In this document: positions 25,185 through 46,457 of the stretch, piece after piece
Numbering within the stretch: the first letter of the stretch is position 1
Layout of the letters: every line of letters begins with the position of its first letter
Source of the DNA: a virus
Taxonomy: Duplodnaviria; Heunggongvirae; Uroviricota; Caudoviricetes
IMG/VR virus record: IMGVR_UViG_2563366799_000009
Direction: 5' to 3' (one strand)
Length of the DNA stretch: 46,457 bases
Position numbers and translations under genes: made by a program
Notes under the pieces: model-generated
Databases searched by the model: none
The model's input: the letters and a program-made list of their open reading frames with translations, nothing else
What the model was told of the DNA's origin: nothing

Positions 25185-25826
25185 CTATCTGGCCGAGCTG
25201 ATCGCCTCAGCAATCGCCTGGTGCAGCGCTGAGGGTAACAATGCGTTGGCCATGGTGTTTGCCCTGTCCATATAGCCGAGCGTTGGTTTGACTGGAAGCG
25301 CGTCTCCAAACCGAATGAGCAATTTTGGTGCAGGTTGCTTAATCTTGTCTCTGCGCGTGCCGTTCGGAGAACGTTTTGCCCGTTTCTTCCCTTTTTTGGT
25401 TTTCGGCTTTTTTCTCTGCCACACGGCATTCACGCCACCAACGTCACCAATAAATACGTTTGGCTTTGCTTTGAGCTGAGAGAGCTTATTACGCGGCAGG
25501 TTGCCGTATTTATTAAGCTTTATGTCTTTCGGGTTAAGCAAAGCACTACCATTAAGCTTGTGCTCTCCGCCGAACTCGAAGGGTTCAAGGTAACCAGCAG
25601 CAGTATCACGAACAAACACCTTCGCACGAAGGCTGTTTTTCCTGGCACCAACTGACCCTACCGATTTAACTGTAAAAGGTGTTGGATTATCCAGATGCCG
25701 CTCAAATGCTGTTTTTTGGGCCGCTTCTATCTGGCGAACCACTATGGTCATCGCCTGCGCCGTCGCAAACGGTATCTGCTTCTGCAGCTGTCTTAACTGA
25801 CCAGAAAGGTCTTTAAGCGTTGCCAT
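25185..25826 (-). CDS. Hypothetical protein with lysine/arginine-rich cluster
   Basis: 213 aa from ATG at 25826 (AGGTGA RBS); KKPKTKKGKKRAKRSPNGTRRDK cluster; no family recognised. Confidence 0.5.
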   Translation of the reverse strand: MATLKDLSGQLRQLQKQIPFATAQAMTIVVRQIEAAQKTAFERHLDNPTPFTVKSVGSVGARKNSLRAKVFVRDTAAGYLEPFEFGGEHKLNGSALLNPKDIKLNKYGNLPRNKLSQLKAKPNVFIGDVGGVNAVWQRKKPKTKKGKKRAKRSPNGTRRDKIKQPAPKLLIRFGDALPVKPTLGYMDRANTMANALLPSALHQAIAEAISSAR

Positions 25827-25880
25827 ATCATTGATCACCTAATTACAGGAATTAAGATCGGTTTGCTCATAAAGATGACA

Positions 25881-25906
25881 ATAAAAAACCGCCCGGAGGC
25901 GGTTTG
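25881..25906 (-). terminator. Intrinsic terminator AACCGCC-TCCG-GGCGGTT plus TTTTTTAT, directly after the phosphatase stop
   Basis: 7-bp stem, 4-nt loop, U-run; stop codon at 25910-25912. Confidence 0.7.
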
Positions 25907-25909
25907 TTA

Positions 25910-26650
25910 CTACTTAGATGTTTGGAAAGATACCGCGACCAGTGTGTAATCATCTATAGGACCGGACCGTTCTATCCTTCTCAGCAAGCTTGCTGCAAAT
26001 TTTGGTGCTTTAGAAATTGTTTCAAGGGAAAGCCGTGGTCTCTGTTCCCAGAAGTGATGAGCTCCATCAGACATGATGTAAACAGTAATGAGCCCATTTT
26101 CATCAACCAGTTCCGACAAGGGCAACTTGACGCTTTGGAAGCGTAAAGCAACGTTTCTGGATATCGCCGAAGTGAGAGTGTTTTTACCTGGAAGATCACG
26201 TAACTCTTTCTTTGTGTATATCCCATCATCAAAAAGTTCTTGGTGTTGAGTGTGATCTTTGGTTATCAACTGAAGCTTTGCGCCTTTTTTTATATAGACA
26301 CGTGTATCACCAACATGTCCAACATACAAAGCTTCATGGTCAATGAAACAGAATGAAAGCGTGGTCGCTGCATTGATCCATTCAGATTTAGCATCTACAA
26401 CCGCGTCAACCTTTTCTTTGAGATCCAGAAATGTTTTTTGGATGTTCGTGATGCTCTCGTTATTGAAAGACCTAAGAGCAGAAGTAGCAGTATCGGCTAT
26501 CTCTTTAGCGCCCTCGTATGAACCGACGCCATCAGCGACAGCAAATACAAACCCATTTCCTGTCGGAGTTGGCAATACATATGAGTCCTGATTGCCGCGG
26601 TCGGCATCTTTAGGGCATGAGAAAAAGCCGCAACTCAGAAGATTAATCAT
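25910..26650 (-). CDS. PP2C/PPM-family Ser/Thr protein phosphatase
   Basis: 246 aa; FAVADGVGS, GDTRVY and SDG motifs; start overlaps the kinase stop as ATGA. Confidence 0.8.
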   Translation of the reverse strand: MINLLSCGFFSCPKDADRGNQDSYVLPTPTGNGFVFAVADGVGSYEGAKEIADTATSALRSFNNESITNIQKTFLDLKEKVDAVVDAKSEWINAATTLSFCFIDHEALYVGHVGDTRVYIKKGAKLQLITKDHTQHQELFDDGIYTKKELRDLPGKNTLTSAISRNVALRFQSVKLPLSELVDENGLITVYIMSDGAHHFWEQRPRLSLETISKAPKFAASLLRRIERSGPIDDYTLVAVSFQTSK

Positions 26651-27414
26651 GCCTGCCTCCCTTCAATTATGGCGTTAAGATCGGCAAGCATCTCACTGAC
26701 TGAATCATATCTCGCAGTCGGTTTGTATGCTGTCGCCTTACCTATTAAAGCATCGATACCATCCACATGGCTCAAATTTAAAATATTCACTATGGCACCC
26801 GCTGCATAGATGTCAGTTTTTGGACTATACAGACCACTATTGACCTCTGGAGCTTTATACCCATCAGTTCCCATGCTGACAGCTATATTGGTTAAAACTG
26901 CTGAGGCCGCGTTAGGATCATCATGCCTCACCAAACCAAAGTCAGACACCTTGTATTGCCCATCATCGAATTTAAGGATGTTTTCTGGTTTAAGGTCCCG
27001 ATGAAGATACCCGCGACTGTGAATATATTCGACGCCGAGCAACATCATTCTAATCGCTGATAGTTTCTCATCATCGCTTAGCACGTTACCTTCAATCTCC
27101 TTCATGAGATCCGTATTAGCCAGAGGCATTACAAACCATGGATGCTCAGCATTGAGATTATGTATCAAGACAGGGACAACATTTGAATGCCGACAGCGAG
27201 ATTGGTAAGTCACCTCTCGTTCAAATCGTCTTCTCCAGTCATCGGGGCTGAAGATTGAACCAACAATATCATGATTAACTGCGAGACTTTTGCGGGCGTA
27301 ATAGCCGCAAAAATGCTCACTAGAATTGTAGAGTTCGATTTTCTCTACACGTCCAAAAGTCCCGCTTCCAAGGTTTGAAATTGGCCTTAAACGATAATTC
27401 CCTCTAGCTTCCAT
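26647..27414 (-). CDS. Hanks-type (eukaryotic-like) Ser/Thr protein kinase, kinase domain only
   Basis: 255 aa; GSGTFGRV, ARK, HRDLKPENIL, DFG and APE motifs all present. Confidence 0.85.
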   Translation of the reverse strand: MEARGNYRLRPISNLGSGTFGRVEKIELYNSSEHFCGYYARKSLAVNHDIVGSIFSPDDWRRRFEREVTYQSRCRHSNVVPVLIHNLNAEHPWFVMPLANTDLMKEIEGNVLSDDEKLSAIRMMLLGVEYIHSRGYLHRDLKPENILKFDDGQYKVSDFGLVRHDDPNAASAVLTNIAVSMGTDGYKAPEVNSGLYSPKTDIYAAGAIVNILNLSHVDGIDALIGKATAYKPTARYDSVSEMLADLNAIIEGRQA

Positions 27415-27528
27415 TTCGGCTCTCTTTCATACAAGTCAATGCAAAATAAATTACTACCAATTAAGAAAGTAAGCTATTGACTTTTGCTCTAGAAAACCGA
27501 TTGATTTCTACTCAATTGCGGCTAATGG

Positions 27529-28059
27529 TTACCGGTTTTGCTCAATCTGCCTAATCCCAGCAAAGTTGTTGTTACCCTTTTCAATGACGGACAGCAGCGG
27601 CTTTATCCACAATACAGCCTGGCAATACGTCATTGAGCTGGAGGCAGCGGAACGATCATCGGCTGCGTCAGGTCTGTCGGTATCGGTGTGCATGGCGCTG
27701 GAACGTAAACGGTACGCGTATTCGAGCAACCCACCAGCAATGTCAGCAGGAACAGGCAGATCACAGGTTTTTTCACGGCGGAGTATCTCCCGATATTCGA
27801 TTACGGTTTCTTCGGTGGTGGTATCGATCAAGGAGTTAAGCCTGTTGGCATGTTCTGCAACCCGATTGAACCGATTGAAGTTGAAAGCCTGATTGGCGAT
27901 CACCTGCCCCTGTAAAGAGTTATCACTTCGCAGAACGTCGTTATCGCTCTGTAGGCTACTGGCGTCTGAGCAACTTTTAACAAGGGCGACTGACAGACCT
28001 GCAATTACTATAACTAGAATAGGGAAGATATTAAATTTCACCGTTCTATCCCCCAGCAC
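27529..28059 (-). CDS. Spanin-like lysis protein (Rz position; alternative GTG start at 28041 gives MKFNIF… signal-like N-terminus)
   Basis: Hydrophobic N-terminus ending …LVKSC, then polar coiled-coil-like region; overlaps the endolysin 3' end; no ATG start. Confidence 0.45.
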   Translation of the reverse strand: MLGDRTVKFNIFPILVIVIAGLSVALVKSCSDASSLQSDNDVLRSDNSLQGQVIANQAFNFNRFNRVAEHANRLNSLIDTTTEETVIEYREILRREKTCDLPVPADIAGGLLEYAYRLRSSAMHTDTDRPDAADDRSAASSSMTYCQAVLWIKPLLSVIEKGNNNFAGIRQIEQNR

Positions 28060-28574
28060 GCCAGCGCGCTCTCCTGGTCCCGTCGCTCAACCTGCCCAAA
28101 GCAGCCATTCTTCTGGCCTTTGGTTAATCGACAATCACGGCCACCATCTTTGATCCACCAGCGGATTGCTTCACACGCCCCTTTACGATCACCGGCGTTG
28201 ATGCGTTTATAAAAGGTCGAAGGGAAGCATTTACCAGGACCAATGTTGTACGGGCAGAATGAGGCAATCCCCGCTTTCTGCGGTTCGGTCAGTGGTACAT
28301 GGATATTGCGGTCGACCCAAGCCAGCGCCTTGTTCAGCTCGCTGGCGTTCACCTGATTACATTTCTCTGGCGATAGCCTCATACCTGGGGTAACAGGCTT
28401 GCCGTCAACCGTGGTAGCTCCCCGGCAAATCGTCCAGATGCCGCTGCCATCTTTGTACGCTGTAAGGCTGTTTCCCTCTTTCTCATTCAGAAACTGATCG
28501 AGAATGACGGATGCTGGCGCACCAGCAAGTACCAGCCCCAGAACAGCAGCACTTAATTTTGCTCTGGATCCCAT
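28038..28574 (-). CDS. SAR endolysin (T4-lysozyme fold, GH24)
   Basis: Gly/Ala-rich weakly hydrophobic N-terminus AKLSAAVLGLVLAGAPASV; E…D…T catalytic pattern; ATG overlaps the holin stop. Confidence 0.75.
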   Translation of the reverse strand: MGSRAKLSAAVLGLVLAGAPASVILDQFLNEKEGNSLTAYKDGSGIWTICRGATTVDGKPVTPGMRLSPEKCNQVNASELNKALAWVDRNIHVPLTEPQKAGIASFCPYNIGPGKCFPSTFYKRINAGDRKGACEAIRWWIKDGGRDCRLTKGQKNGCFGQVERRDQESALACWGIER

Positions 28575-28876
28575 CACTCACCTTCCTTTTGTAATGCCTC
28601 AACGACCACGCTTGCAGCCGCAGGACGTTCGTGAAGGGGTTTATCACCAACGCCTTTCAGGTAGTCATTAACCATTTTTGTTCGCTTTTCGTCCTCTCTA
28701 CGCCTGCGGTGGGCATCCACGCGACCATTGACATAGGAGGCAAACGAGATAAGCAGACCAGCGGCGCCAAAGAACATGAACACCATATCCTGAGTGGTAA
28801 AACCAATGGCTGACGCCAGAGCTGCTACCCACGCGAAGAACTGCGTGAAAATGTTCCCTGAATCATTCATTTTCAT
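28574..28876 (-). CDS. Holin (two TMDs) with Met1-Lys2-Met3 dual-start motif
   Basis: 100 aa MKMNDSG…, two hydrophobic helices, charged C-terminus; first gene of the lysis cassette. Confidence 0.7.
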   Translation of the reverse strand: MKMNDSGNIFTQFFAWVAALASAIGFTTQDMVFMFFGAAGLLISFASYVNGRVDAHRRRREDEKRTKMVNDYLKGVGDKPLHERPAAASVVVEALQKEGE

Positions 28877-28944: not shown

Positions 28945-29997
28945 TTATTCCCCTGTTAACGCCCTTATTTCCTCCACCGTCTGGCTAAACCTGTCCTCCT
29001 CGAGTTCAACGCCGATAGCCTGGCGGCCAAGTTCCAGCGCGATTTTCACGGTCGAACCGGACCCCATAAAGAAATCAGCCACCACATCACCAGGCTTACT
29101 GCTGGCGTTGATGATCTGCCGCAACATGTCAGCGGGTTTTTCGCATGGGTGTTTACCTGGGTAAAACTGAACGGGTTTATGTGTCCAGACGTCGGTATAA
29201 GGAACGGATACGGAAACAGAGAAATGCCGCCGAAGCGATTTGTACTCTTCGAGCAGCTCTGAATACTTGCGATTTAACGAATGCCACATAGCCACCAGCT
29301 GGTGGTGTGGTGTTGCCAGTTCGCCGTTCTGGTGCTTTTCGATGGCTACCTGCGTGAAAAGGGACTGAAGATTCCGGTAGTCTGATTCATTCGGTAATTG
29401 CCACTGGCTACCGCTGAACCAGTGAGACACCATGTTCTTCTTTCCAGTCGCATCGGCTATTTGTTTTGAGGTTATGCCAAGCGCTTCACGTGCATCCCGG
29501 AAATAAGAAATTAGGGGAGTCATTACATGCTGCTTCAGCTCGCTTCCCTTCTCAGCGTACCCGTCGCTCTTTGGTTTATACGGCCCCTGGTAATGCTCAG
29601 CGAACAGGATGCGCTCTGTTGCAGGGAAGTAAGAGCGCAGGCTCTCTTTATTACAGCCATTCCAGCGGCCCGACGGTTTAGCCCAGATGATGTGGTTCAG
29701 GACGTTGAACCGCTCACGCATCATGATCTCAATGTCTGCCGCCAGACGGTGACCTGAGAAAAGATAAAGACTGCCGGCAGGTTTAAGCACTCGCCAGAAT
29801 TGTGCGAGGCACATATCAAGCCAGCGAAGATAATCCTCATCCCCTTTCCATTGATTGTCCCAGCCGTTGGGTTTCACTTTGAAGTACGGTGGATCCGTGA
29901 CTATCAGGTCAATGGAGTTATCAGGGAGAGTTGCGATGTATTGCAGGCTATCAGCGTTGACTAACTCAACACTGTTTATAATTACAGTATTTTTCAT
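28945..29997 (-). CDS. DNA methyltransferase (N6A/N4C type, DPPY motif)
   Basis: 350 aa; DLIVTDPPY near the N-terminus and FFMGSGST near the C-terminus. Confidence 0.75.
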   Translation of the reverse strand: MKNTVIINSVELVNADSLQYIATLPDNSIDLIVTDPPYFKVKPNGWDNQWKGDEDYLRWLDMCLAQFWRVLKPAGSLYLFSGHRLAADIEIMMRERFNVLNHIIWAKPSGRWNGCNKESLRSYFPATERILFAEHYQGPYKPKSDGYAEKGSELKQHVMTPLISYFRDAREALGITSKQIADATGKKNMVSHWFSGSQWQLPNESDYRNLQSLFTQVAIEKHQNGELATPHHQLVAMWHSLNRKYSELLEEYKSLRRHFSVSVSVPYTDVWTHKPVQFYPGKHPCEKPADMLRQIINASSKPGDVVADFFMGSGSTVKIALELGRQAIGVELEEDRFSQTVEEIRALTGE

Positions 29998-30210
29998 AGA
30001 TCAGTAAGCGTAACTCTGATAGGCTCACTATGCTTTTGCGCTAAAGCGGTGGGCCTTGGTTAGCTTGTGACCTGAAAGCATGAGCTGATGGCTGGTGGGT
30101 GCTCCAACATCCACCAGCCGCCCATTTTCACAGCAGAAAGCCTCCGGATCTGGAGGCGCTCAATTATCCGAATGGAAAATCCGACATCCCGAGAAGACCG
30201 GGAGATAGCC

Positions 30211-30238
30211 ATAAAAAAAACCGCTCAGTGGCGGGTTT
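30211..30238 (-). terminator. tR'-like terminator hairpin followed by T8, downstream of the Q-like gene
   Basis: CCGC-CACTGA-GCGG then TTTTTTTT; lies between the Q-like gene and the late genes. Confidence 0.45.
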
Positions 30239-30330
30239 ATATACTTTTGGCAACATATCAAATTAGCTTCAAATATCGCTTATTTTGTTGCATTTTGCAA
30301 GCCTGATTGAAGACGTTAGTGAAATTTACT

Positions 30331-31023
30331 TCACATTTCTACCACTTTAACTTCTTCGTACTCTTCGTACCGCGCCAGGCTTTCACGTAACGCCAGGCTG
30401 TCCATTTCCACGAAAGCTGCTTTAAATGCTGCCCAGTGAGCAGCGTATACCCTGAGCCAGGTTGAACGCTCCACGCTCACCATGCGGGCCAGTGCCGCCC
30501 CCGCATATTCCTGGTACGTATCGTTATTGCGTGATGCTGCAACTTCCTGGGCCGCGAGCCAGACAAGCCCCACTAATTTTTTTGTGACTCTGTCCTGGAG
30601 CTTCTTACTCCCCTGCTGATGCTGAAACTGTGCCCAAACGTACTGGCACATTAATGTCTGGTACCGGAAAGACAGATCATATCCATAGCAATACCGAACC
30701 CACGCCTGCAGATGCTCTCCAAGGCCATTTACCGAGCGGCGCCACGCAGAACTCGCAAACTCGGCATCCTTCATAGGGGGTAATGGGCGTCGACGGCTTC
30801 TTGTCTCCAGAACATAAAGCGGAGTGGCCAGAGTTTTTACAACCTTCGATCCACAACCTTCCCCACCCTCCATGACGATTTCTGGATGGTGCCGGGGATA
30901 CTTATTTTTATCTGCTGGTGGATGCTCACTGAACGCCTGTAGCTGTCCCTTCGTCGATCCTGAGAAATCGGCCAGCGCGCGGCGCAATTCAATACGGGTA
31001 TATTCGAGTTCTTGTAAATTCAT
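30331..31023 (-). CDS. Putative late-gene antiterminator (Q-like)
   Basis: 230 aa from ATG at 31023; assignment is mainly positional (immediately upstream of terminator plus late genes). Confidence 0.4.
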   Translation of the reverse strand: MNLQELEYTRIELRRALADFSGSTKGQLQAFSEHPPADKNKYPRHHPEIVMEGGEGCGSKVVKTLATPLYVLETRSRRRPLPPMKDAEFASSAWRRSVNGLGEHLQAWVRYCYGYDLSFRYQTLMCQYVWAQFQHQQGSKKLQDRVTKKLVGLVWLAAQEVAASRNNDTYQEYAGAALARMVSVERSTWLRVYAAHWAAFKAAFVEMDSLALRESLARYEEYEEVKVVEM

Positions 31024-31044
31024 AATGCTCAGCGCTCCATACAA

Positions 31045-32809: not shown

Positions 32810-33196
32810 TCAGGCGGCTGCACCCGCCGGTTCGTAAATGCTGATCGTTATTTCAACCTTTCCTTTCGGCACCACTGGCCCCCACTCCACCAGCATGCGC
32901 TTTACCTGGCTGTCGTCCTCCCACACGCCAGCATGTGTCAGCGCGTCAAACAGCGCGTTGTTGTAATTGTCCAGATCCCGACGGCGCATATCCGGAGGGA
33001 ACAGGGTGATTTCTACCGCGGCTGGTGCGGTAGTTGGTTTCGGTAAACGGCGCAGCTGCTCAATGATTGCGGCGCATGCGGCACTTTGATATTTGCGGCC
33101 TTCAGCACTGATTAAGTGGCGACCGGCCAGCGGCCCCTTATTAGGGGCTCGCCAGTAGGTGTTCACACTCGGAGGGAAAGGAAGCACCAGTTTCAC
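32810..33196 (-). CDS. rusA: RusA Holliday junction resolvase
   Basis: 128 aa; PPSVNTYWR…RRRDLDNY…FDALT…W.DD motifs match RusA. Confidence 0.8.
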   Translation of the reverse strand: MKLVLPFPPSVNTYWRAPNKGPLAGRHLISAEGRKYQSAACAAIIEQLRRLPKPTTAPAAVEITLFPPDMRRRDLDNYNNALFDALTHAGVWEDDSQVKRMLVEWGPVVPKGKVEITISIYEPAGAAA

Positions 33197-35127
33197 GCCA
33201 CCTCCTGCTGGTTGTCAGAACAGAACTCAGGAAGATTTGCCTCAACCAGCGCACGAGCGAACGGCGGCGGTACTGCGTTACCACAGCGCGCTACCTGCTT
33301 GTCTTTGGCGTAACGATTGCCGCGATAGTCCTGATCGATAACGTAGCCGTCAGGGAAGCCCTGCGCCTTATAAAGCTCATGCGGTTGCAGCATGCGCATT
33401 CCGATATCGACGATCTGGTACTTAACCCCCTCGATCGTCACCAGCCATTCATCCTCGCTATCACCGCAGTAGGTTTCGAGGAATGTCCGGACCTCGCCAA
33501 CGTGCTGGCCACCAGCGGTAATAGTCGGCATAGGTGTATCCATGGTCTGACCGTCGCGGCAGGTTCCGCGTAGCTTCACCAGGTGCGACGCAACTACCGC
33601 GTGGTGATCAACAGTAGTGACTGAGTGGGCAGGCTCATCCATACCAACACCCGGCCCCGTGTAATTCCCACCATAGTGCTTCGCCAGGAACGCGCTCACC
33701 GTTGCAAACTTATTACCACCAGCAGTGACCGTGCCGAGCGGGTTATTCAGTTGAATAACACGCGGTTCTTGCCCTGGGCGTTCGCCGTACCCCATCTGGA
33801 TCAGTGTTGGAGTTACCAGCTGCGACTTACCGCCACCACCAGCAGTAATCGTCGCGCTCGGTTCGTCAGCCCTGTGCCCAACACTGGCGCCAAACTGGCG
33901 GGCGATGACCGGAGCAACAACGCACGCGCGGGACTGCTTGAGGATTGTATGAGCGGGTTTATCCAGCGGGCGCGGCTTTGCCTGGTACTCACTGCCGCCA
34001 TTGCCAGCCAGGAACGGTGTCAGGGCGGCCTCAACTACGCCAAGCGCATGCCCATTCCCGCCTGGGCGCGCCGACGTACCAGCGGTGACAGTTGGAACCG
34101 GCTCGGTCACTGGCTGCCCGGTGGCCCCGGTGCGGAATTTAGTAAGATGCGGTACCGCCAGCGCGTAGCCATGCTTTTTAGTGATGGTCTGCAATGGCTC
34201 TAACAACGATTGCCCGCGGAAACAGTCATAACCTCCTTTCGTCGTGGTGTGGTTACACTTCACGATGAAAGGTGATGCACTTTCGATAACAAAGCGCTGG
34301 ATGCCGCGCGCGATACGTTTGAGCGTATTTTCCGCCAGCGGCTTTTTGCGGTCGAAGATGGAACGGGCCGGGATGTTCCAGTCAATGCACTCCGCCGCGG
34401 TACGCCATGGCGCCAGCTTGCCGCTTTGTACTTCCAGTGATTTTGGATCCCCATGAGTCGCTTCAGGCCAATGAATCTTGCGGCCGTCACAACGCATGAC
34501 CATGAAGAAACGCTTTCTGATCGTCGGCGCGCCGTAGTCACAAGCGCGCAGCTCACGATAATCGACCTCATAGCCAAGCCCGGCGATCAGCTGTTGCGCC
34601 TGCTGGCCGTGCGGCTCAATGGCAAGAAATTCACAAACCTCAGCCAGTGCTGGGTGATTCGCCGCGATACCAGTCGACAGCATGCCGACAAATGCCTCAA
34701 ATGTTTCACCAGCACGCTCAGGATCCGGGCGTAATTCTTCATCCAGCAGCGGGCCCCATGTCTTAAATTCTTCGACGTTCTCCAGCATCATGACGCGGGG
34801 ACATACTGACAGCGCCCAGCGCAGGACAATCCACGCCAGCCCGCGAATCTCTTTCTTAACCGGCTTAGCGCCCTTCGCTTTGGAAAAGTGGCGGCAGTCA
34901 GGGCTAAACCAGGCCAGACCGACAGGTTTACCGCTGGTGGCTGCACTTGGGTCAACGTCAAACACCGACTCGCAATAATGCAGCGTGTCCGGGTGATTCG
35001 TCTTATGCATCGCAATAGCGTTTTCGTCGTGGTTGATAGCGATATCCACGCTACGCCCGATCGCCAGTTCAATGCCGGTACTCGCGCCACCACCACCAGC
35101 AAAGTTATCAACGATAATTTCACGCAT
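33193..35127 (-). CDS. DNA (cytosine-5)-methyltransferase with four repeated TxTAGG modules (possibly multispecific)
   Basis: Start at ATG 35127 (MREIIVDNFAGGGG, motif I), SPDCRHFS, ENV; TVTAG/TITAGG/TVTAGG/TITAGG repeats in the variable region. Confidence 0.75.
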   Translation of the reverse strand: MREIIVDNFAGGGGASTGIELAIGRSVDIAINHDENAIAMHKTNHPDTLHYCESVFDVDPSAATSGKPVGLAWFSPDCRHFSKAKGAKPVKKEIRGLAWIVLRWALSVCPRVMMLENVEEFKTWGPLLDEELRPDPERAGETFEAFVGMLSTGIAANHPALAEVCEFLAIEPHGQQAQQLIAGLGYEVDYRELRACDYGAPTIRKRFFMVMRCDGRKIHWPEATHGDPKSLEVQSGKLAPWRTAAECIDWNIPARSIFDRKKPLAENTLKRIARGIQRFVIESASPFIVKCNHTTTKGGYDCFRGQSLLEPLQTITKKHGYALAVPHLTKFRTGATGQPVTEPVPTVTAGTSARPGGNGHALGVVEAALTPFLAGNGGSEYQAKPRPLDKPAHTILKQSRACVVAPVIARQFGASVGHRADEPSATITAGGGGKSQLVTPTLIQMGYGERPGQEPRVIQLNNPLGTVTAGGNKFATVSAFLAKHYGGNYTGPGVGMDEPAHSVTTVDHHAVVASHLVKLRGTCRDGQTMDTPMPTITAGGQHVGEVRTFLETYCGDSEDEWLVTIEGVKYQIVDIGMRMLQPHELYKAQGFPDGYVIDQDYRGNRYAKDKQVARCGNAVPPPFARALVEANLPEFCSDNQQEVA

Positions 35128-36454
35128 TGACGGCCCCCTGCATGCTGTTGAAGAGACCACCAGCGGTCGTGATAATTTCACTCGTCGGCATACGTTCGAG
35201 CCACAGCTGGTTGATATTGGCTTTCAGCTTGTTCTGTTGTGAAACAGGTAGAGCGTCAGCACCTTCAATCTGGTTAAACACCAGGCCAACCTCAAGAGGC
35301 CAAACGCGCGATTCGTTTAACGCCTTGTCCTTTGATTCCTGCGTCTCACGTACATGAGCGCGGATCCCCCGAATATTTGACCATTTGGCTTTATCCAGGC
35401 TTTCCATGGTCGCGATGAATTCACTGTAGTTGATGCCGTATTCTTTCGCAGATTCAACGGCAACCGTGCGAAGCCGCTCTGACATGTCTTGTTTCACGTC
35501 ATCGCTATCAAAGGGCAATGTTTCCAGCCATGCATTAACACCCACCAGGATGCTCTCGCTGATCAGCTTTTTCGCTCTATCGATCGTCAGCGGTGAAACA
35601 TTGGTAAATTCAGGGTTTTCCAGAGAGTCGGCAGCCCAGGTATGACCAAACTTTGACTCGCTGAAGGTGTACTCATCTTTCTCGCCGAACGCCGCGACAA
35701 CACAGGCCCAAGCTTCTACACCACTGGTTTCCAGAATGGCTTTTTGGGTTAATGGCAGTTCTGCCTCTGATTTCTCCGGCACTACCTCAGCGTCCAGCTC
35801 CGGCGCCGCATCAGTTTGCGTTCTTCCCACGGCAAACTGGGCCAGCGACATCGAAGCACGGCCTTTGGCCTCCAGGTCGGTGCGGTTGATGTAACTGAAA
35901 CGTTCACCCCGCCATGTTTTGTCGAAGACCACGATAGCGCCAGCAAAAAATGCGCTGGTTGGCTGCTGCTTTTCGTCTTTCGGCACGAACCATGTAGGAA
36001 GATCGAAACCAATTCGGCCACGGATGAATGTGACGTGATCTGCTTCTTCCGGCCACCACGTCTCACTCGTCGCAGACTTAATGAGAAAAACGTACCGCCC
36101 CCCCTTTTCTCGCATTGCCATAGCGTGGTTAATGATGTGGGTCATTCCGGTAATGGCCTGCTTGTCGTGATACTGAGAGCGGCTGTAAGGCGGGTTGCCA
36201 AACCCGGCACCACCGAGTTCTGCCAGACGCTCAGACCAATCCTGTGTCAGGGCATTATCTTCAGCCGTGTACCATGCTGGGCACTTCGCGTTGCTGTCGT
36301 CGGCAAAAAGGTCCAACACCAGAGGGCCGAACATCGCATTGATACCCCAAAACAACAGATCCGGAGTGCGCCATTGATCGCCGACCTCTTTCAACTCGTG
36401 GGCTGGTCTTGAACGCAGTTCAACCAGCGCGCGGCAGTATTTGCTTTCAATCAT
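35120..36454 (-). CDS. Phage Dam-like N6-adenine DNA methyltransferase (NPPY motif) with C-terminal extension
   Basis: 444 aa; WRTPDLLFW…FGNPPYS…; C-terminal ~200 aa of unknown function. Confidence 0.7.
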   Translation of the reverse strand: MIESKYCRALVELRSRPAHELKEVGDQWRTPDLLFWGINAMFGPLVLDLFADDSNAKCPAWYTAEDNALTQDWSERLAELGGAGFGNPPYSRSQYHDKQAITGMTHIINHAMAMREKGGRYVFLIKSATSETWWPEEADHVTFIRGRIGFDLPTWFVPKDEKQQPTSAFFAGAIVVFDKTWRGERFSYINRTDLEAKGRASMSLAQFAVGRTQTDAAPELDAEVVPEKSEAELPLTQKAILETSGVEAWACVVAAFGEKDEYTFSESKFGHTWAADSLENPEFTNVSPLTIDRAKKLISESILVGVNAWLETLPFDSDDVKQDMSERLRTVAVESAKEYGINYSEFIATMESLDKAKWSNIRGIRAHVRETQESKDKALNESRVWPLEVGLVFNQIEGADALPVSQQNKLKANINQLWLERMPTSEIITTAGGLFNSMQGAVNA

Positions 36455-38610: not shown

Positions 38611-39237
38611 ATGGAAACGGTTGGTCAGCGCATTAAAGCCCTACGCAGGGTTACAAAAACCTCTCAAAAAGAACTGGGTAAGTTCTGCGGAGTGAGTGAC
38701 GTAGCAGTGGGTTATTGGGAAAAGGATGTGAATATCCCAAACGGAGAATCGCTGGTTAAGCTGGCTAAATTCTTCAATACATCAATAGATTACATTCTTT
38801 ACGGCACTGAATTTGAAGGGACCCTCATAACTAAAATGAGGCGTGTGCCCGTGATTTCTTGGGTTCAAGCTGGGCAGTTTACGGAATGTAAGGCCGCTGA
38901 TTTATTCAGTGATGTCGATAAATGGGTTGAAACCTCACTACGCATTGGGGATAGCTCGTTCGCTTTAGAGGTCAAAGGGGATTCAATGACCAATCCAAAT
39001 GGCCTCCCAACAATTCCTGAAGGGGCAACCGTTATTGTCGATCCAGATGCCGAACCCCTTCATGGCAAGATTGTTGTTGCGCGTATTGATGGCACTAACG
39101 AAGCGACTGTTAAAAAACTGGTCATTGATGGCCCACAAAAATTTTTAGTCCCACTAAATCCTCGCTACCCCAACATCCCGATCAATGGTAACTGCCTCAT
39201 TATTGGAGTAGTTAAAGGCGTTCAGTACGAACTCTAA
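38611..39237 (+). CDS. cI: CI-type repressor (HTH plus S24 LexA-like autopeptidase domain)
   Basis: 208 aa; N-terminal HTH; C-terminal GDSM and …VKKL… Ser/Lys dyad region. Confidence 0.8.
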   Translation: METVGQRIKALRRVTKTSQKELGKFCGVSDVAVGYWEKDVNIPNGESLVKLAKFFNTSIDYILYGTEFEGTLITKMRRVPVISWVQAGQFTECKAADLFSDVDKWVETSLRIGDSSFALEVKGDSMTNPNGLPTIPEGATVIVDPDAEPLHGKIVVARIDGTNEATVKKLVIDGPQKFLVPLNPRYPNIPINGNCLIIGVVKGVQYEL

Positions 39238-45057: not shown

Positions 45058-45267
45058 ATGGCAAAGCTAATGAAAGCGAGTCTCTGGAGTAAACGCGAAT
45101 TTACCAAAGACTCCATTCCTGACAACCGTACAATTAAACGTTGGGTCGAAAACGGATTACTCATGGGAAGGATCGTAGACGGTTCAGTATTTGTCTATGA
45201 AACCGAAAAATGGGGAGTCGACTCAATTGTTAATCAGGCGGTACGTCAGTTAATAATTGAGGGTTGA
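45058..45267 (+). CDS. xis: Excisionase
   Basis: 69 aa from MAKLMKASLW; immediately upstream of and overlapping int. Confidence 0.55.
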   Translation: MAKLMKASLWSKREFTKDSIPDNRTIKRWVENGLLMGRIVDGSVFVYETEKWGVDSIVNQAVRQLIIEG

Positions 45268-46457
45268 CCATGGCAGCAAGGCCACGAAAAAAAGAATACC
45301 GCCACCTTCCTGATTATCTTTTTTTTGATAAAGATCGTGGCGTGTATAAGTTCACGCTTATAACTGGGAAAAAGAAAACTCTCGGTTCGGATCGAGTAAT
45401 GGCTATCGCCATCGCCCGAGAATATAACCTGAGGATGCGCCCTGAAAATACACCATCGATAGATTCATTAATTCGGGAGTCGGGAGGGCAGAATGGTGAA
45501 GCCCACCCGTTTTCTGAACATGTTGATCGCATTATGGAGAGAGCGATCAAAGATGAGCAGCCGTCTAAAAGCACACTTGACGATTGGAATAATGATGCCA
45601 TCAGGGTTAAAGAATTTTTTAATAACATACCCGCATGCGACATTGAGCTTGAGCACGTAAATGCCTACATACGAAATTACCATTCTGAATCGTCGGCCAA
45701 TGTTCAGAACCGAAAAGTTAGCTTCCTGAAAAAGCTATTCTCTTATGCTGTGGATGAATCGCTGATGATGGATAACCCTGCAACACGGAAAAAAATGCGG
45801 CGCGTCGATAAAAAGGTCCGCCGGCGACTTACTTTGGAACAGTTCCTGGCCATACATGCAGCTGCTGAACCTTGGCTGAAGACTGCAATGGACCTTGCAA
45901 TACAAACTACGCAAGCGCGCTTGGAAGTTTCCCGGATCCGGTACTCGATCAAGGAACCTAAAGAAGGGGTTTGCGGATGTGTATGGTTCGATCAGGAAGA
46001 GGCTGGCATATTCGGAACGCTTTACATTCATCGGCAAAAAGTGCAGCACAAAGAGGCCTCACACGTTGCCATTCCGATCGGCAGGACCCTGAAAGAGATC
46101 ATCGACAACAGCAGAGACAATGTGGCCAGTCCCTATGTTGTTCACCGGCTTCTGGAAAAGAGAAGCAATCCTATAAGCAAGGAAGTTAACCACCCTACAC
46201 AGGTGGCCCCTGATTATTTGAGCAGGGCATTTTCAGAGCTGCGGGACCGGATAGGTGTAGCGGCAGAATTACCTATCAAAGAAAGGCCAACTTTCCACGA
46301 GATTAGAGCGCTGGCGGCTCATATTTTCGAAAGACAAGGTATCGATCCGCAGGCAAGGATGGCCCATAGTGATGCAAAATCGACAAAAATTTATACCCAG
46401 AACCATGTTGAATGGGTAGAAGTTCCTCATGCTGAAATTGTCTTTAAAGCCGGGTGA
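45264..46457 (+). CDS. int: Tyrosine integrase (lambda-family site-specific recombinase)
   Basis: 397 aa; C-terminal …HEIRALAAHIFERQG…AHSDAKSTKIYTQ catalytic region; stop is the last codon of the window. Confidence 0.85.
   Translation: MTMAARPRKKEYRHLPDYLFFDKDRGVYKFTLITGKKKTLGSDRVMAIAIAREYNLRMRPENTPSIDSLIRESGGQNGEAHPFSEHVDRIMERAIKDEQPSKSTLDDWNNDAIRVKEFFNNIPACDIELEHVNAYIRNYHSESSANVQNRKVSFLKKLFSYAVDESLMMDNPATRKKMRRVDKKVRRRLTLEQFLAIHAAAEPWLKTAMDLAIQTTQARLEVSRIRYSIKEPKEGVCGCVWFDQEEAGIFGTLYIHRQKVQHKEASHVAIPIGRTLKEIIDNSRDNVASPYVVHRLLEKRSNPISKEVNHPTQVAPDYLSRAFSELRDRIGVAAELPIKERPTFHEIRALAAHIFERQGIDPQARMAHSDAKSTKIYTQNHVEWVEVPHAEIVFKAG

Follow-up and report, generated by a model that had tools for sequence, protein, structure and literature searches.

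The virus record IMGVR_UViG_2563366799_000009 of the IMG/VR database (46,457 nucleotides (nt); this whole stretch of DNA is called the window below) is a complete lambdoid prophage. On its minus strand, with the Rz spanin gene upstream and a packaging-module open reading frame (ORF) of 217 amino acids (aa) downstream, it carries a cassette of two genes. These encode a Hanks-type, putatively serine/threonine (Ser/Thr)-specific kinase (26647..27414, minus strand, 255 aa) and a PP2C/PPM Ser/Thr phosphatase (25910..26650, minus strand, 246 aa), each of which consists of its catalytic domain only. An earlier model reading of the letters alone (the sequence-only reading) had drawn attention to this pair, citing the motifs GSGTFG, HRDLKPEN, DFG and APE in the kinase and AVADGVGS, GDTRVY and SDG in the phosphatase; both ORFs and all of these motifs are present, and the kinase has the lysine K42 as well. 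The comparisons described below show that the cassette is a self-contained and horizontally mobile unit, made up of a leader, the kinase gene, the PP2C phosphatase gene and a terminator, and that it is non-essential cargo of temperate phages and of other elements.

The profile searches and structure predictions proposed with the sequence-only reading agree with its assignment of both proteins. The kinase matches the Pfam Pkinase profile with E=1e-30, and AlphaFold2 predicts for it a canonical bilobal fold (pLDDT, the predicted local distance difference test score, 88; predicted template modelling score, pTM, 0.87), to which the nearest solved structures found by Foldseek are those of IRAK4, PknB and Stk1, with template modelling (TM) scores of 0.70–0.77. 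The Hanks residues G16/G18/G21, K42, E67, H138-R139-D140-K142-N145, D158-F159-G160, E190 and R235 do not vary among 35 sequences, and the HRDLKPEN signature together with the GT..Y.APE P+1 loop, both established kinase motifs, indicate Ser/Thr specificity. Pkinase is the only domain detected in the protein, whose 255 residues leave no space for another one. The kinase family is discrete: it comprises kinase-only proteins of about 244–293 aa from Enterobacterales, the scores falling from E=1e-49 to 1e-23 before the generic kinases begin, and an exhaustive profile search gave some 25–30 full-length single-domain representatives at 50% identity clustering. A profile scan of genome contigs with the kinase alignment yielded a flood of generic Hanks kinases, the patterns HRDLKPxN and SDFGL being universal, and the loci L002–L079 are irrelevant to the family.

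The phosphatase matches Pfam PP2C_2 with E=6e-12 and the NCBIfam Stp1/PP2C model with E=1e-23, and its AlphaFold2 model (pLDDT 92.5) has the PP2C beta-sandwich fold, with PstP, tPphA and Stp1 as the nearest solved structures (TM 0.73–0.82). The metal-coordinating aspartates of motifs I, II, VIII and XI (D22, D40-G41, D195-G196 and D233-D234) either do not vary at all or are at least 97% conserved. The family of the phosphatase exceeds that of the kinase in size and extends to Aeromonas, Pseudomonas and Gilliamella. The 565-position profile of PHROG 5650 hinted at a kinase–phosphatase fusion, an idea that we rejected since the kinase does not match this profile; the searches listed no fusion protein among the close relatives of the kinase or of the phosphatase.

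The two genes behave as one unit. The stop codon of the kinase gene and the start codon of the phosphatase gene overlap as ATGA (26647..26650), as had been noted in the sequence-only reading, suggesting that translation of the two is coupled, and this 4-nt overlap is kept in most of the related loci. In all 80 related IMG/VR loci (80/80) and in Escherichia phage Flotzy, down to a kinase identity of 37%, the kinase gene is followed by the phosphatase orthologue on the same strand, and the pairwise identities of the two proteins correlate with r = 0.88 over 55 unique pairs. The kinase–phosphatase pairing is obligate, and these 80 loci have no conserved third gene upstream or downstream of it. 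Both genes are under strong purifying selection, the ratio of nonsynonymous to synonymous substitution rates (dN/dS) being about 0.05–0.1, with medians of 0.07 and 0.09 for the two genes in 33 pairs. Given the conserved catalytic residues, the low dN/dS and the confident AlphaFold models, both enzymes are predicted to be catalytically active. Decayed copies of the cassette also occur, although sequencing errors may account for them: in L103, L131 and L151 the kinase gene has a nonsense mutation or a frameshift beside a phosphatase that is 100% intact, and in L158 the phosphatase gene has two frameshifts beside an intact kinase.

The 114-bp spacer between the stop codon of the Rz spanin gene and the kinase start (27415..27528, minus strand) is AT-rich (34% GC), as the sequence-only reading had described it. 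Its proximal part of about 70 nt (27415..27484, minus strand) is a conserved leader that moves with the cassette and keeps the invariant blocks GTCAAT.G and GTAA.TT despite the differing upstream genes and the saturation of synonymous sites. The leader diverges more slowly than the synonymous sites of the kinase gene (Jukes–Cantor distance 0.18–0.24 vs a synonymous divergence, dS, of 0.50–0.61), and on the strength of its conservation and of this slower divergence we read it as a DNA-level regulatory element. It includes a ribosome-binding site GAGAG (27420..27424, minus strand) and a candidate weak promoter (minus strand) with the -35 box TAGCTT at 27471..27476, a 17-nt spacer and the -10 box TAATTT at 27448..27453; this is the best sigma-70 assignment in the window, it is weak and it ends 33 nt before the ATG. 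The unbiased 6-mer occupancy of 30 non-redundant leaders was not above the shuffle null, only the positions being locked, and the leader gave no signal of RNA structure (no Rfam match; fold z-score 0.87). An inverted repeat, AAGTCAAT ... ATTGACTT (27433..27484, minus strand), flanks the candidate promoter, and its arms vary together in L098 (AATGTCAAT/ATTGACATT) and in L085 (CATGTCA/TGACATG). As a conserved stem this repeat was rejected because its right arm moves and is missing in L087 and L130; the two arms could represent an operator pair.

At the other end of the cassette, behind the phosphatase gene, stands the intrinsic terminator that had been predicted there, AAACCGCCTCCGGGCGGTTT followed by a T-run (25879..25905, minus strand; hairpin stem 25905..25886). 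The homology with phage Flotzy stops at this terminator, and 36/55 relatives have a hairpin with a T-run behind the cassette. Sub-threshold Rfam matches over the hairpin (25827..25914, plus strand; STnc130 with 24.9 bits against a threshold of 55 and P9 with 18.7 bits against 43) are most likely just the terminator hairpin itself. The claim that the cassette is autonomous stands as far as the terminator is concerned; a sigma-70 consensus scan of the spacer was negative, and a promoter of its own is no more than a candidate. The impression that the two genes are richer in AT than their surroundings was correct, with 43–44% GC in the kinase and phosphatase genes vs 50–54% in the flanks, and the GC content of the cassette is below that of its flanks in 55/55 loci, by 10 points on average.

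The position ascribed to the pair in the sequence-only reading, between lysis and packaging genes, is that of the window: holin, endolysin and Rz spanin genes lie upstream, and the 217-aa packaging-module ORF, TerS and TerL downstream. The further claim that this is the site of a moron was tested by the comparison of related prophages that had been suggested along with it, and the slot is variable, which strongly supports the cargo reading. In phage Eeyore, which is 94.5% identical over the regulatory and lysis region, the slot between Rz and TerS measures about 280 bp and holds only a 39-aa ORF; in 933W the Rz-to-terminase slot holds bor, a lysogen-expressed gene. With slots assigned by the PHROG annotation of neighbouring gene clusters, the cassette was found between the lysis genes and TerS in 12 loci as well as in L109 and L111, immediately behind Q with the lysis genes following (the Stx slot) in 12 loci as well as in L089 and in Cronobacter phage phiES15, directly downstream of a cI-type repressor gene, with cro, cII and O divergent, in 9/55 unique loci, and after an N-like antiterminator gene in two loci. 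The remaining loci represent various other contexts, so that at least four lambdoid slots are used. Elements other than phages carry the cassette too, in both cases with the 4-nt overlap: in Pseudomonas (L164–L166) it adjoins the integrase gene in a region of Tra genes resembling an integrative and conjugative element (ICE), and in Aeromonas (L167–L169) it is found at the margin of a small integrase island, which also carries Bro-N, DUF3825, DUF2787 and WYL genes. A constant core component of the phage is ruled out by the empty slot of Eeyore, by bor in 933W and by the multiplicity of slots and elements, and the status of the cassette as cargo is thereby confirmed.

The hosts of the family are prophages of Enterobacter, Klebsiella, Citrobacter, Yersinia, Cronobacter and Serratia. 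Among 50,697 phage records only two, Flotzy and phiES15, have the pair; no complete E. coli genome matches the cassette at the DNA level, and no relevant match was found among the plasmids searched. Flotzy CDS0008/0009 belong to the same two-gene family with 94–98% identity and the same overlap, as do phiES15 gp21/gp22 with 52% identity and the same overlap, although in phiES15 the pair occupies the Q-to-lysis slot and not that between Rz and TerS. Both pairs are annotated as kinase and PP2C or as hypothetical proteins, and we found no functional study of either in open-access papers and preprints.

Several known systems invite comparison with the cassette. KKP (PfkA/PfkB/PfpC) is a prophage module with two toxic kinases that are kept in check by the PP2C antitoxin PfpC (Guo et al. 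2024, PMC11341870); its defence is triggered when T4 Gp59 inhibits PfpC, and a further role of the module is the regulation of Pf lysogeny, with the involvement of the nucleoid-associated silencer MvaU (PMC11341870). Like the pair in the window, KKP is cargo of prophages and other mobile genetic elements of Gram-negative bacteria and unites Hanks kinases and a PP2C (PF13672) phosphatase in one operon. It is, however, a triplet of PP2C, kinase and kinase, whereas in the window a single kinase gene lies upstream of the phosphatase gene, and in the KKP kinases toxicity requires C-terminal FHA and CSD domains, of which the domain-only kinase described here has none. Neither the triplet order nor the CSD and FHA kinase fusions by which KKP is defined are found in the window pair, and since the KKP census was filtered for triplets, a kinase/PP2C pair of this kind is not covered by it. 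The anti-phage system TerY-P, which consists of VWA, PP2C and kinase proteins (PMC11090510; Anantharaman 2012; Gao 2020), also combines a PP2C phosphatase with a Ser/Thr kinase, but it requires a TerY-like VWA protein, which has no match among the neighbours in the window, and its kinase forms a fusion with a zinc ribbon or an OB fold, neither of which is present in ours.

The relationship to Stk of phage 933W is of another kind. Stk is reported to be a tyrosine kinase that is activated when HK97 infects and that excludes this phage (PMC3681748). Stk and the window kinase fall into the same family, PHROG 2361 (E=3e-142 and E=7.5e-69, respectively), and have in common the C-terminal motif RY.SV..L.DL.AI; their identity is 24% over 215 aa. 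Stk has 348 aa with a C-terminal extension, HFD in place of HRD and no phosphatase neighbour, as against the 255 aa of the window kinase. The stk gene is located in the cI (pM) operon, as are 9/55 loci of our family, whereas the pair in the window lies between Rz and TerS.

The PADLOC models of PD-T4-6, Stk2 and MAD6 are matched by the window kinase with E values of 1e-24 to 6e-36. These matches cover the kinase core only (positions 161–357 of 500 in Stk2 and 51–245 of 659 in mad6), the PD-T4-6 models match housekeeping PASTA kinases as well, and the PD-T4-6, Stk2 and MAD6 systems have no PP2C partner. The PADLOC matches were rejected as evidence of membership, those of the kinase being generic and that of the phosphatase only marginal (PDC-M21C, 7e-4). 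Housekeeping kinases of the Stk1/PknB type have sensor domains (transmembrane and PASTA), and in Gram-positive bacteria their genes belong to the chromosomal core. The housekeeping pairs Stk1/Stp1 and PknB/PstP resemble the cassette in the adjacency of kinase and PP2C genes, and they provide the closest solved structures for both proteins; unlike them, the proteins of the window are soluble minimal domains encoded on mobile elements of Gammaproteobacteria. The statement in the sequence-only reading that no defence system of this composition had been described needs to be qualified, because KKP and TerY-P are defence systems in which kinase and PP2C phosphatase do occur together. It holds for the two-gene, domain-only form, of which we found no example in PADLOC or in the open-access papers and preprints searched.

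The interpretation that we put forward, and that we are nearly as inclined to believe as to doubt, is that the cassette is a kinase switch for phage exclusion that is held in check by the phosphatase. The two enzymes would be translated together from a single message, and in the undisturbed cell the phosphatase would cancel both the autophosphorylation of the kinase and the phosphorylation of its substrates. A superinfecting phage might upset this balance either through inhibition of the phosphatase, the effect of T4 Gp59 on PfpC, or through activation of the kinase, the effect of HK97 on 933W Stk. With nothing to oppose it, the phosphorylation of Ser/Thr residues in proteins of the host or the phage would then arrest growth or block phage development, and the lysogen population would be protected. 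Expression in the lysogen, the toxicity of the kinase, the trigger and the targets are what we infer in this scheme, which would join the logic of KKP, with the phosphatase as restraint and sensor, to the logic of Stk, with an exclusion kinase activated by infection. KKP itself, in which a prophage PP2C acts as antitoxin to defence kinases, is the precedent for such a switch (PMC11341870). The defence role gains some support from the presence of 933W Stk in the same PHROG and from the location of 9/55 members in the cI operon, like stk; this placement of part of the family, together with its general distribution among mobile genetic elements, favours a function in the lysogen. In a bolder version, which seems to us possible and rather doubtful, the cassette would rank as the smallest known immune switch based on a kinase, a co-translated futile phosphorylation cycle of two sensorless catalytic domains that is triggered when an invading phage interferes with the phosphatase or with the balance, and that has spread as a plug-in, complete with its conserved leader and terminator, among all lambdoid cargo slots, ICEs and islands across Gammaproteobacteria.

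Several observations weigh against a phosphatase-restrained defence switch. Both proteins are bare catalytic domains in which Pfam recognises no sensor domain, and of the PADLOC matches those of the kinase are generic, while the phosphatase lacks a meaningful one. About half of the loci that can be classified belong to late or early operons of the lytic cycle, and as the consensus scan found no sigma-70 consensus promoter in the 114-bp spacer of the window, expression in this particular slot may be confined to the late operon. The intact kinase beside a frameshifted phosphatase in L158 speaks against a strong constitutive toxicity of the kinase.

The location of the cassette also bears on the alternative explanations. 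Phage T7 encodes a kinase, gp0.7, that remodels host proteins during infection. In the window and at least 24/55 unique loci the cassette belongs to the late transcription unit that depends on Q, with either the lysis-to-terminase or the Q-to-lysis slot as its site, two further loci follow N, and the spacer of the window has no detectable consensus promoter. These observations would speak for a factor of host takeover or counter-defence that is expressed from a late or early operon in the lytic cycle, the kinase remodelling host proteins and the phosphatase limiting the damage or erasing the signalling of defence kinases. We consider such a lytic function distinctly improbable, for close relatives with normal growth (Eeyore) do without the cassette, which has a terminator and a conserved leader of its own and is located in the cI operon in nine loci and on non-phage elements too, and the same slots are known for lysogen-expressed cargo such as bor. 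The position beside cI, Q and N in many loci would suit a regulator of lysogeny or host physiology, in which the pair adjusts how far a regulatory protein of the host is phosphorylated (a nucleoid-associated silencer, for instance, as with MvaU in KKP) and thereby controls induction or host traits, defence being absent or secondary. KKP has a second role of just this type (PMC11341870), a reversible kinase/phosphatase pair is well suited to regulation, and the window prophage has other lysogenic-conversion cargo in the form of gtrABC. We nevertheless think this explanation unlikely: on the ICE-like region and the integrative island prophage regulation is irrelevant, no target can be inferred, and the overlapping, co-translated genes leave little room for the differential expression that drives the regulatory mode of KKP.

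The decayed copies are of interest with regard to an even less probable alternative, that of a pure addiction (toxin–antitoxin) module stabilising the mobile element without any anti-phage role. Three copies with a broken kinase vs one with a broken phosphatase represent a skew towards loss of the kinase that such a module would explain, as it would the opposing activities of two tightly coupled enzymes and the presence of the cassette on several kinds of mobile element. Classical addiction, however, needs an unstable antitoxin, and nothing suggests a differential stability of the two proteins; the broken phosphatase of L158 accompanies an intact kinase, and toxin–antitoxin modules of prophages often double as defence systems, as KKP does.

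Only a small number of anti-phage systems are based on kinases (Stk2, 933W Stk, PD-T4-6, TerY-P and KKP), and their mechanisms are poorly understood. We regard a defence role as plausible for this minimal two-gene kinase/PP2C module, which is widespread and discrete, and a sensorless version consisting of two enzymes would offer the simplest setting for studying how infection is sensed through the kinase–phosphatase balance and which substrates are the key ones. Should the pair prove to be a regulator of lysogeny or of the host instead, it would extend phosphorylation-based crosstalk between prophage and host from the Pf phages of Pseudomonas to lambdoid phages. The family is directly testable because it is discrete and present in prophages of clinically relevant Enterobacterales as well as in two cultured phages, Flotzy and phiES15.

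The rest of the window shows the layout of a lambdoid prophage. The integrase gene (45264..46457) marks the right end, followed by a gene for a cI-like repressor (38611..39237), by the early genes on the minus strand between this repressor gene and Q, and by Q itself (30331..31044). A gene for an N6/N4 methyltransferase (28945..29997, minus strand) lies between Q and the holin gene, and the holin, endolysin and Rz spanin genes (28876..27529) are directly upstream of the cassette. Downstream of the latter, the 217-aa ORF (25185..25838, minus strand) is immediately upstream of TerS, and next come TerL and the head and tail genes. This ORF was rejected as a third component of the cassette, since it belongs to a packaging module common to phiNP and BZS1 and is absent at all other loci. 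It is labelled 'minor tail protein' through PHROG 1924, a label that looks doubtful; the centre of the protein is rich in lysine and arginine, it has no Pfam match, and its homologues are found near the record end in Dinoroseobacter phage vB_DshS-R4C, Rhodobacter phages and Serratia phage BZS1.

At the far left end lies an operon of gtrA, gtrB (GT2) and a GtrII-type glucosyltransferase gene (1908..4709, plus strand). With a GC content of 33–43% and adjoining a tail-fibre assembly gene, this gtrABC operon is O-antigen serotype-conversion cargo and represents a second lysogenic-conversion module of the prophage. The interval between Q and the N6/N4 methyltransferase gene (29998..30330) has 333 bp and no long ORF in the window; in the prophages L161–L163, whose kinase is 98% identical to that of the window, the same gap (about 6400..7500) holds HicA/HicB in L162 and L163 and a 201-aa ORF in L161, and is thus another variable cargo slot. 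The prophage apparently has three genes of the DNA methyltransferase type (28945..29997, 33193..35181 and 35120..36454, minus strand), of which the C5 methyltransferase and the Dam-like gene of the early region are assigned only by the match of their size and order to the Pfam calls in L161; the three are likely to be anti-restriction cargo.

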